A stretch of DNA of 53,792 bases from Nitrososphaeria archaeon. GTDB lineage: Archaea; Thermoproteota; Nitrososphaeria; Nitrososphaerales; JACAEJ01. Every line of letters begins with the position of its first letter. Within the stretch, counting starts at the first letter, position 1. Shown here piece after piece: positions 9,714 through 10,791 of the stretch. The notes below the pieces were generated by a model. The model made no database searches and was not told the origin of the DNA. It worked only from the letters and a program-made list of their open reading frames with translations. The position numbers and the translations under genes are program-made. Location: the NCBI GenBank assembly GCA_029775875.1, contig JARVKD010000003.1, positions 1-53,792 of the forward strand. Reading direction: 5' to 3'.

Positions 9714-10791
9714 ATGATTTGGAATGGTTTCACTCAAAAAACTGTAAGCTGGGAAGACGAAGCGATTAAATTGATAGACCAAAGGAAATTGCCCAACAAA
9801 CTAGTTTTCATAAAATGCATCGATCATCATCAAGTAGTAGATGCCATCAAGAACATGAGCATAAGAGGAGCTCCTGCCATTGGAGCGATAGCAGCTATGG
9901 CCCTCGCATTAGTAGCCCATAAATCTAAGGCTGAGACAAAAGAAGACTTAATTAGAGAACTTGAATTTGTAGTAAAGGATCTAAAGGCTACACGCCCAAC
10001 AGGCGTTAACTTATTCTGGGCTATTCAAAGAGTTATGAATAGAGCGCATTCAACTGAAGGAACAATAAAGGAGATCGTTAAGGCAATTAAAACTGAAGCT
10101 CTTCTAATTGCAGAAGAGGATATAGAGACAAACCGTGCCATAGGAAAGAATGGCGCTGAGATTCTTGAAGATGGAGACACAGTGCTAACCCACTGTAAAT
10201 GATCTAGTTTTCACTGGTCAGCAGAATGCGGGGGCACTGGCAACGGTAGGCTATGGTACTGCTCTAGGGGTAGTGAGGGCAGCAATAGAGCAGAGAAAAT
10301 GCATAAGCGTAGTAGCTACAGAAACCAGACCCGCACTCCAAGGAGCAAGGCTGACATGCTTTGAACTCAAAAACGCTGGGATTCCTGTTACTTTGATAGC
10401 AGATTCTATGGTGGGTTATGTAATGCAAAAGAGATTGGTGAATAAAGTAATAGTTGGTGCAGATAGAATAACAAGGCTCGGTCATACATTCAACAAGATT
10501 GGGACTTATCAGATAGCAGTTCTAGCTCAAAGGCACAACATACCTTTCTATGTTGCTGCGCCTAGATCAACCTTCGATTTTGATACTAATTTTGAAGATA
10601 TAATAATTGAGGAAAGAAGCTTAAATGAGATGGTTATGATCAATAGAAAAAGAATAGCGCCAAAAGGAATCAATGTGCTAAATCCAGCCTTTGACATGAC
10701 TCCACCAGAGCTGATAACTGCGATTATAACTGAAAAAGGATTATTGCTACCACCGTTTGAAGAATCTATCGCCAAATTCTGTGAATTATAG
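9714..10791 (+). CDS. mtnA: Methylthioribose-1-phosphate isomerase / aIF-2B-type isomerase, interrupted by a 28-nt insert (exon 1 9714..10198, exon 2 10227..10791)
   Basis: ORFs 9714..10202 and 10273..10791 are the N and C halves of one MtnA-family protein (WEDEAIKLIDQRKLP...RGAPAIG...LTHC / [20 protein letters not shown]...TETRP.LQGARLT...VGADRI...FYVAAP). Removing 10199..10226 gives one 349-aa ORF. It may instead be a pseudogene or a split gene. Confidence 0.7.
10199..10226 (+). other. Candidate bulge-helix-bulge (BHB-like) intron within the mtnA mRNA
   Basis: The central 4-bp helix is 10193-10196 paired with 10221-10224. The 5' bulge is AAA at 10197-10199. The inner 5-bp helix is 10200-10204 paired with 10216-10220, with an 11-nt loop. 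The 3' unpaired AAU lies at 10225-10227. Cutting after the 2nd nucleotide of each bulge restores the frame. Confidence 0.5.

Follow-up and report, generated by a model that had tools for sequence, protein, structure and literature searches.

A probable bulge–helix–bulge intron in the mtnA pre-mRNA of Nitrososphaeria and Bathyarchaeia

Since 2002, cbf5 of some Crenarchaeota is said to have been the only archaeal gene known to carry a bulge–helix–bulge (BHB) intron in its coding sequence, to which a study of 2020 reportedly added a case in a 5' untranslated region (5'-UTR). The cbf5 pre-mRNA intron of Crenarchaeota (Desulfurococcales, Sulfolobales) was reportedly described by Watanabe in 2002 and by Yoshinari in 2006, and the BHB introns of archaeal tRNA and rRNA are said to have been treated by Marck and Grosjean in 2003. 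Here we analyse a stretch of 53,792 nucleotides from a Nitrososphaeria archaeon (contig JARVKD010000003.1 of assembly GCA_029775875.1; hereafter the window), with a G+C content of 39.6%, in which the gene mtnA is interrupted by 28 nucleotides at positions 10199..10226. We consider it very probable that this insert is a conserved BHB intron of the mtnA pre-mRNA, whose splicing we infer from the sequence and from its relatives.

Within the reach of our full-text search, the only mRNA substrates are cbf5, in its coding region, and the 5'-UTR intron of HVO_1309 (PMC2738675, PMC7714728, PMC10485636). The former is a pre-mRNA intron of Desulfurococcales and Sulfolobales (Yokobori 2009, PMC2738675), and the latter is a 46-nt BHB intron of Haloferax volcanii (PMC7714728). 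An earlier reading of the window, made from its letters only (the sequence-only reading), stated that cbf5 is essentially the only known case among archaeal protein-coding genes; this is right for introns in coding regions, but it overlooks the 5'-UTR intron of HVO_1309 (PMC7714728). Our full-text literature search, the reach of which ends at subscription-only papers, returned no report of an intron in mtnA or in any gene of the IF-2B family.

The interrupted mtnA gene and the fold of the insert

The list of open reading frames (ORFs) of the window contains 9714..10202 (162 aa) and 10273..10791 (172 aa), both on the + strand and in different frames. The upstream ORF terminates with ...DTVLTHC, one lysine and a stop codon, and the MtnA sequence resumes one frame over, from position 10227. 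We reproduced the prediction that deleting 10199..10226 gives one uninterrupted ORF of 1050 nt, that is 349 codons plus a stop; since an AA repeat borders the insert, the deletion of 10197..10224 or of 10198..10225 gives the identical sequence. The joined 349-aa protein is covered in full by a Pfam IF-2B match (E 3e-95), scores 406.6 bits against NCBIfam TIGR00512 (salvage_mtnA, S-methyl-5-thioribose-1-phosphate isomerase; curated cut-off 279), and can be aligned to two solved structures of MtnA, 1t5o (E 6e-109) and 1t9k (E 8e-107), with no gap at the junction, which upholds the view that the two ORFs are the halves of one isomerase of the MtnA/aIF-2B type. Exon 1 (9714..10198, + strand) thus runs from Met1 through Cys161 and two bases into the codon of Asn162, and exon 2 (10227..10791, + strand) from the third base of that codon, through the conserved AG.LAT..YGTAL, to the stop codon. 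The putative BHB intron between them (10199..10226, + strand) is AUGAUCUAGUUUUCACUGGUCAGCAGAA; its assignment draws on the restored frame, on orthologous inserts and on a covariance model. The cysteine directly 5' of the insert is the one that we take to be the catalytic cysteine, by comparison with Bacillus subtilis MtnA (Cys160/Asp240).

The minimum free energy (MFE) fold of 10180-10240 reaches -22.3 kcal/mol (z = -3.07; 2/200 shuffles are equally stable). All of the elements that follow are on the + strand. The last base of the His codon and the Cys codon provide the 5' strand (CUGU, 10193..10196) of a central helix H, the 3' strand of which is the intronic GCAG at 10221..10224; this pairing is found in the MFE fold, in RNAalifold and in the covariation alignment. 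The 5' bulge AAA (10197..10199, predicted cut 10198/10199) stays single-stranded both in the MFE fold and in the consensus of RNAalifold, and the 3' bulge A-A-U (10225..10227) has its predicted cut at 10226/10227. The inner hairpin h' (10200..10220), which lies in the intron, is made of 3 bp, a bulged U10203, 5 bp and a UUUC loop. Every base pair put forward in the sequence-only reading is possible, and folding the region retains its 4-bp helix and its AAA bulge, but the MFE fold sets the inner hairpin in another register. Likewise, of the two 3-nt bulges separated by 4 bp that it described, the 5' one has the expected length, whereas the 3' one is reduced to 2 nt (A10225, A10226) because U10227 is paired with A10192.

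The outer helix h has its 5' strand in exon 1 (10180..10192, with 10189-92 proximal and 10180-86 distal) and its 3' strand in exon 2 (10227..10239). Its proximal part consists of A10192-U10227, C10191-G10228, a bulged C10229, C10190-G10230 and C10189-G10231. The distal part is a 7-bp helix (10180-86:10233-39, GUGC/GCAC) which is not maintained in GC-rich lineages, and we have left it out of the conserved motif. According to this model the motif, h / 2-3-nt bulge / H / 3-nt bulge / h', would be nearly canonical, the 3' bulge being its one relaxed feature.

A structure of this sort is in itself weak evidence, because loose BHB-like cores are common in the window: a loose scan of its whole + strand returned 4168 of them, including 572 whose inner helix counts 5 bp or more, which amounts to about 1e-4 per combination among some 5.9 million combinations of position and length. 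Another scan, for BHB-like removals that merge ORFs in the window, gave 86 matches, most of which fuse adjacent genes of operons. Both scans are too unspecific to find or to exclude further mRNA introns without information from homology. What is not due to chance is that the present core coincides with the sole deletion that restores the frame and that it is conserved in relatives.

The splicing that we propose would proceed as follows. In the transcript, CUGU, the last four bases of exon 1 before the bulge, would pair with the intronic GCAG to form the 4-bp central helix, flanked on one side by the 3-nt AAA bulge and the intron hairpin, and on the other by the 2-3-nt AA(U) bulge and a short exon–exon helix. 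The archaeal splicing endonuclease, presumably the (alpha-beta)2 heterotetramer of the Thaumarchaeota–Aigarchaeota–Crenarchaeota–Korarchaeota (TACK) archaea, with its relaxed specificity, would then cut each bulge behind its second nucleotide, at 10198/10199 and 10226/10227. RtcB would ligate the exons into UGU-AAU-GCG, with a predicted junction 10198/10227 reading CCCACUGUAA/UGCGGGGGCACUGG, and would probably circularise the 28-mer as well. The 349-aa isomerase would be encoded by the spliced mRNA only, the unspliced one stopping at a UGA one codon into the insert. Cuts at these two places restore the HCNAG motif and the 349-aa ORF, and the same holds in 53/53 complete relatives. The sequence-only reading had placed both cuts after the second nucleotide of a bulge, and this agrees with the canonical 37/38 intron of a tRNA-Arg gene that lies in the window, which serves as an internal standard for the BHB rule of the host, and with the rule of cbf5, where cleavage follows the second nucleotide of each bulge (PMC2738675).

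Recurrence, covariation and rival explanations

An insert of 19-40 nt occurs at the identical Cys|Asn position (UGY AA^U) in 71 fetched loci. Its carriers are non-ammonia-oxidising Nitrososphaeria, 'Methylarchaceae' and Bathyarchaeia, and the insert-bearing lineages share only about 50-60% protein identity. When one genome per species was scanned, 71 mtnA loci were confirmed by tblastn, six of which carry the insert at the same place, five in genomes of the Nitrososphaeria type and one in a genome of Bathyarchaeia. Three are metagenome-assembled genomes (MAGs) with a 28-nt insert and a protein close to that of the window, two of Nitrososphaerales (L026 and L028, 94% and 92% identity) and one of Nitrososphaeria (L070, 89%); the others are a Nitrosopumilales MAG, so named in the title of the record (L049, 82%, 29 nt), an unclassified 'archaeon' MAG (L071, 73%, 27 nt) and a Bathyarchaeia MAG (L068, 59%) whose 28-nt insert has a wholly different hairpin sequence. 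The isolate names of the sister MAGs (Nitrososphaeria or Nitrososphaerales archaeon) point to hot springs. No insert was found at the site in ammonia oxidisers (Nitrososphaera, Nitrosotalea, Nitrosopumilaceae), in most Bathyarchaeia, in Methanosarcina or in bacterial homologues, its absence being judged from the HCNAG motif for 38 loci and from the lengths of the tblastn matches for the remainder.

Scanning a metagenome collection with the pattern CACTGYAANTGN{8,38}CAGCAGARTGCNGG gave 62 loci; the match lies between ...VLTHC and NAGALAT... in 56/62, and the other 6/62 are chance matches. The inserts measure 19, 21, 22, 24, 26, 27, 28, 29, 31, 38, 39 or 40 nt, and they are built on a common plan, in which a single nucleotide is followed by a hairpin, self-complementary but very variable in sequence, and then by GCAG and AR. 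The pattern itself fixed the central helix, the inner pairs 1-2 and two outer pairs, and the invariance of these pairs in the scan set is uninformative because the pattern required them.

Their sole test is a pattern-independent sample of seven loci from four lineages, obtained by a protein search with the 162-aa half. This search yielded about 70 clusters (at the 90% identity level) of 161-169 aa that end at the insert site, with names such as 'hypothetical protein [Nitrososphaerales archaeon]' and 'Candidatus Methylarchaceae archaeon HK02M2'; for four of these clusters the DNA was retrieved, and it shows two adjacent IF-2B ORFs with the same architecture in 4/4. The CUGY/GCAG central helix is present in all 63 aligned sequences and in the seven pattern-independent loci. 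Two loci are outside the reach of the pattern: in L137 a compensatory change replaces UG...CA at the base of the helix by UA...UA, and L141 has AUU as its 3' bulge. A cluster look-up adds a single further label, Bathyarchaeota archaeon B24 (KYH37792.1). The N-terminal half encoded in the window is identical to proteins of GCA_029775865.1 (contig JARVKC010000002.1) and of the Logan SRR27730040 assembly. In the clade of the window, 20/20 full-length clusters of the N-terminal half (64-94% identity, 161-192 aa) stop at the insert site, and a collection of 5.8 billion proteins holds no intact full-length MtnA that is more than 65% identical; in the same collection the best full-length match of a second lineage (contigs Ga0187827/Ga0187833) is 64% identical.

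The sequence-only reading had named an alignment of orthologous mtnA loci as a check; in it the insert keeps its place, and the bases of the inner helix change in a compensatory way. We trained a covariance model on seven 28-nt insert sequences, and it recovers 63/63 inserts in the 80 loci searched, 0/6 of the chance matches and none of the intronless loci. In the resulting alignment 98.2% of the cells are paired; changes on both sides of a pair amount to 49 cells, against 16 +/- 7 in column shuffles (0/500 shuffles as high), among sequences that share ancestry. Pairing falls to 23-32% when the 3' partner is shifted by one column. The informative pairs are pairs 3-5 of the inner helix (pair 3, for example, is AU 20, GC 18 and GU 4 times). 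All 48 distinct sequences form the inner hairpin h'; its sequence varies with the lineage, and its pairing is kept by compensatory changes. In the relatives the 5' bulge, AAA or AAU, is always 3 nt long, and the 3' bulge is AAU, AGU or AUU. Without any imposed structure, RNAalifold predicts the central helix, the 5' bulge and the inner helix h'; the outer helix h is absent from this prediction.

Both exon borders evolve as coding sequence, with variation predominantly at third positions: over six codons per side, at positions that the search pattern did not constrain, minor alleles number 25/46/152 upstream and 20/19/170 downstream at the first, second and third codon positions. Removing the insert leaves a single uninterrupted ORF in 53/53 loci where the gene is fully on the contig (51 distinct sequences). 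The AG.LAT..YGTAL segment immediately 3' of the insert has a conservation of 90% or more and holds no conserved start codon; the first possible in-frame start of exon 2 wanders from codon 4 to codon 61 according to the lineage, so that exon 2 is not separately translatable without losing the core motif of the family. All distinct inserts with a length divisible by three (21/21) hold an in-frame stop, and the frame of exon 2, followed within the insert, is stopped in 24/39 distinct cores and open in 15/39, which excludes frameshifting or read-through as a general route.

The exons also carry a signature of pairing. The Ala codon after the junction is GCG in 47/57 intron-bearing genes and in 1/36 intronless ones, and the Thr codon is ACC or ACG in 53/57 against 15/36; both positions were free in the search pattern, and the sequences compared are phylogenetically related. 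These preferences make sense if the register of the outer helix is shifted by one base, U(+1) pairing with the A that precedes the central helix: A:U and C:G are then followed by G:C and C:G when Thr is ACG, or by a bulged C, C:G and C:G when Thr is ACC, as in the window, and neither continuation is possible unless the Ala codon ends in G. The outer helix thus appears to form 4 bp in the shifted register and, judging from codon usage, to be under selection. Its poor pairing, which had been held to be the weak point of the motif, largely disappears with the shift by one base and with the GCG and ACC/ACG bias.

Several observations weigh against an intron, besides the pairs imposed by the search pattern. 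The motif is not fully canonical, since the 3' bulge has 2 nt in the predicted fold and 3 nt only if A10192-U10227 opens. The sequences being related to each other, their counts and the shuffle statistics overstate independence. The sole endA homologue within the window lacks the catalytic histidine and may be inactive, and a catalytic subunit is not seen there; because of this missing histidine we assume that the catalytic EndA subunit is encoded elsewhere in the genome. Lastly, the collection of 5.8 billion proteins contains no spliced or intronless near-identical protein (the best full-length match of the lineage of the window is at 65%), and an exact look-up of the spliced proteins of 9 lineages, which assembled transcriptomes might have supplied, gave none, a result that is uninformative rather than negative.

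Four other explanations were considered. That the insert is an artefact of assembly or sequencing might come to mind because the window is from a metagenome-type assembly; the sequence-only reading had itself raised this, and we regard it as excluded, since an identical or orthologous insert is present in independent assemblies (NCBI GCA_029775865.1, Logan SRR27730040, a Kamchatka MAG, and JGI and ENA contigs). It could also be that the 28 nt inactivated mtnA and that the gene is now decaying, with an incidental hairpin: annotation pipelines do call two fragments or a 'hypothetical protein', and loose BHB-like folds are frequent by chance. We find such a pseudogene extremely improbable, as the same site is interrupted in 71 loci across distant lineages, the variation at both exon borders is that of coding sequence, the insert itself covaries, and the window clade has clusters that all end at the site and no intact protein above 65% identity. 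The further frameshifts or stops which the sequence-only reading would have taken as a sign of decay are found in 0/53 complete genes.

The other two explanations accept a functional locus and dispense with RNA splicing. In a genuinely split gene, polypeptides of 162 and ~172 aa would assemble into the isomerase and the hairpin would be an intercistronic element. Gene callers do place a GTG start at 10273 for the second ORF, and split enzymes occur in some archaea, but no part of the family is better conserved than the 15 codons between the insert and this GTG, and they would be lost; moreover the first possible start of exon 2 ranges over codons 4-61 among the lineages, the Asn codon itself is divided (AA/U), and the conserved frame reaches the insert from both sides. 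This makes a split gene very improbable. Translational recoding, either by bypassing of the T4 gene 60 type (take-off at AAA, landing at AAU) or by a +1/-1 frameshift, is suggested by the AAA directly before the UGA and the hairpin of the window, by the AAU at the 3' end of its insert, and by the 15/39 distinct cores in which the exon-2 frame is open, so that a +1 shift is possible in principle. On the contrary, take-off and landing triplets are mismatched in the relatives (AAA or AAU against AAU, AGU or AUU), in 16/39 cores the bulge is followed by UGG and not by a stop codon, 24/39 are closed in the exon-2 frame by a stop within the insert, and the insert lengths fall in all three phases, so that each lineage would need a different mechanism. 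Bypassing from AAA would swap the family-invariant Asn of HCNAG for Lys, and a frameshift would add 6-13 residues within the catalytic motif; the conserved feature is the BHB geometry, not a recoding signal. There is hardly any room left, in our opinion, for recoding.

Regarding the history of the BHB intron, the insert would be ancient, judging from its same site and same GCAG-AR end in Nitrososphaeria and Bathyarchaeia. In a neighbour-joining (NJ) tree of spliced and intact MtnA proteins, the intron-bearing lineages are many, deep and interleaved with intronless clades; this tree is crude, and its metagenome sample is intron-bearing only, by design. Given how widely the insert is spread, at one and the same site and with a shared GCAG-AR 3' end, we favour one old gain followed by several precise losses, the ammonia oxidisers being among the losers. 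A bolder proposal is that the intron is TACK-wide, older than the split between Nitrososphaeria and Bathyarchaeia, and kept in order to couple MtnA synthesis to tRNA-splicing activity; a divergent endA-like partner without its catalytic His would fit such a coupling to the splicing machinery, but we hold this proposal to be rather unlikely, and a role of splicing as a regulator of MtnA synthesis is a conjecture.

We also observed that the bacterial MtnA of five loci (L041, L043, L044, L046 and L067, from MAGs of Deltaproteobacteria, Binatia and Syntrophobacteraceae) are intronless and ~51% identical to that of the window, and that they fall within the archaeal part of the NJ tree, which hints at gene transfer between domains.

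Splicing genes and an intron-bearing tRNA beside mtnA

The gene of an RNA 3'-phosphate ligase, rtcB (the archaeal tRNA-splicing ligase), is located 2.8 kb upstream of mtnA (5422..6915, + strand). It was identified as an ORF with a Pfam RtcB match on the identical locus L001; its matches to the RtcB families of NCBIfam are all below the curated cut-offs.

An endA-like gene with the fold of tRNA-intron endonucleases (9014..9553, - strand; Pfam PF01974 and PF02778, NCBIfam endA 86 bits) is divergent from mtnA, 160 bp apart. Of the catalytic triad, its product in the window retains Tyr and Lys, with Ser in place of the His; by NCBIfam it would nevertheless be named a tRNA-intron lyase. A homologue is linked to mtnA in 47 loci, and 45/45 distinct mtnA-linked homologues lack the His of the triad Tyr-His-Lys, which is either deleted or exchanged for Ser, Pro, Ala, Thr or Val, according to an alignment checked against 1a79, 5x89 and 2cv8. 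Among the 52 intron-bearing loci with sufficient flanking sequence, 37 have the gene upstream and divergent; eight intronless loci of the Bathyarchaeia type have it downstream and co-directional. The linkage recurs across TACK lineages in these two arrangements and is absent from ammonia oxidisers. Since the catalytic His is replaced, the protein is probably a structural partner in an (alpha-beta)2 heterotetramer, and (alpha-beta)2 splicing endonucleases are the rule in TACK archaea (PMC5829648).

A tRNA-Arg(UCG) gene (10830..10930, + strand), recognised by an Rfam tRNA match, begins 38 nt downstream of mtnA and contains two mini-introns, which were resolved by alignment to an intronless 75-nt orthologue (L136:5421-5495). 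Intron 1 (10856-10869, 14 nt) interrupts the 3' strand of the D stem, which is not a canonical intron position, and has H = AUAA/UUAU; intron 2 (10883-10894, 12 nt) is at the canonical position 37/38, with H = CUUC/GAAG and bulges GG/U and AG/A, cut after their second nucleotide. Neither has an inner helix. With both removed, ARAGORN calls tRNA-Arg(TCG); in its default mode the program finds no tRNA at 10830..10930, and brute-force removal of a single intron gives nothing sensible. The tRNA-Thr with a 4-nt intron that its intron mode proposes is implausible and was rejected in favour of the tRNA-Arg(UCG) given by the L136 alignment. Relaxed, non-canonical mini-introns need an endonuclease of broad specificity (PMC5829648), and the processing of this tRNA, with its relaxed mini-introns, one of which is at a non-canonical position, would require such an enzyme in the host.

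It is to be noted that rtcB, the endA-like gene, the intron-bearing mtnA and the intron-bearing tRNA gene all lie inside 5.5 kb; this clustering may be a coincidence or a small RNA-splicing neighbourhood. Downstream of the tRNA, a hydrogenase-type cluster (11005..14189, + strand) encodes a HycI maturation protease, Oxidored_q6, Complex1_30kDa and a NiFe large subunit, as assigned in the gene table of L001; it fits a lineage that does not oxidise ammonia. An HMGL-like gene, split into two genes (200 and 216 aa) in L001:366-1715, was discarded as a second candidate. It is an intact ORF of 449 aa in the window (7078..8427), and its split in the near-identical contig L001 is probably a frameshift error of the assembly and no second intron.

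Significance and comparison with known systems

If the proposed splicing takes place, mtnA would be the second archaeal protein-coding gene known to need BHB splicing, in a gene and in classes other than those of cbf5, and it is documented by well over a hundred sequence clusters with clear covariation. The splicing of mRNA by the tRNA machinery would then be recurrent and long-lived in TACK archaea, and not the curiosity of one gene. Because pipelines report mtnA as fragments or as hypothetical proteins, the methionine-salvage capacity of the carrier lineages is under-called; as a corollary, many 'split' or 'frameshifted' genes of TACK MAGs may be unrecognised genes with BHB introns. The system is well defined and testable, with a short substrate, a predictable junction, and neighbours that encode an endonuclease subunit, a ligase and an intron-bearing tRNA. 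It bears on the recognition of relaxed BHB motifs, on possible regulation by introns, and on intron gain and loss.

A comparable system of eukaryotes is HAC1/XBP1 (IRE1 together with RtcB or Trl1), where a short mRNA intron is also removed independently of the spliceosome, by cuts in stem-loops and joining by a tRNA ligase, and where the unspliced form gives a truncated or different protein. The endonuclease is IRE1 and the motif is another one; in that case splicing is a proven regulatory switch, whereas regulation of mtnA is conjectural. Should the coupling be true, mtnA would be a housekeeping analogue of HAC1/XBP1, in which methionine and polyamine salvage is tied to the capacity for RNA processing. 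HVO_1309 shares with mtnA that an mRNA is the substrate of the tRNA-splicing endonuclease; its intron was recovered as a circle, and its removal is apparently needed for normal expression. In contrast to mtnA, the HVO_1309 intron is in an untranslated leader and leaves the frame uninterrupted, its motif is canonical, and its host has an enzyme of the alpha2 type.

The BHB introns of tRNA and rRNA have the same motif and the same predicted enzymes (EndA, RtcB), and the size of the mtnA insert is in the range of the 12-40-nt mini-introns of Thermoproteota. Unlike them, the mtnA intron sits in a messenger, whose exons are constrained both by coding and by pairing; this double constraint shows in the bias of the Thr and Ala codons.

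The mtnA intron in all likelihood joins the class of archaeal pre-mRNA introns to which that of cbf5 belongs. Both are short introns of the BHB type within the coding region of a housekeeping enzyme, and both fall at a catalytic motif, inside the codon of the catalytic Asp in cbf5 and two bases past that of the catalytic Cys in mtnA. They have in common the cuts after the second nucleotide of each bulge, a relaxed or unconventional BHB, hosts from groups with (alpha-beta)2 endonucleases, and a patchy distribution that implies gain and loss. The splicing of cbf5 is proven by cDNA sequencing and by cleavage in vitro, whereas that of mtnA is predicted from sequence. On the other hand, the mtnA intron is found in another gene and in other lineages (Nitrososphaeria that do not oxidise ammonia, 'Methylarchaceae', Bathyarchaeia), its distribution seems much wider and deeper than that of the cbf5 intron, and its motif, with a well-formed h' and a 4-bp H, is closer to the canonical one.

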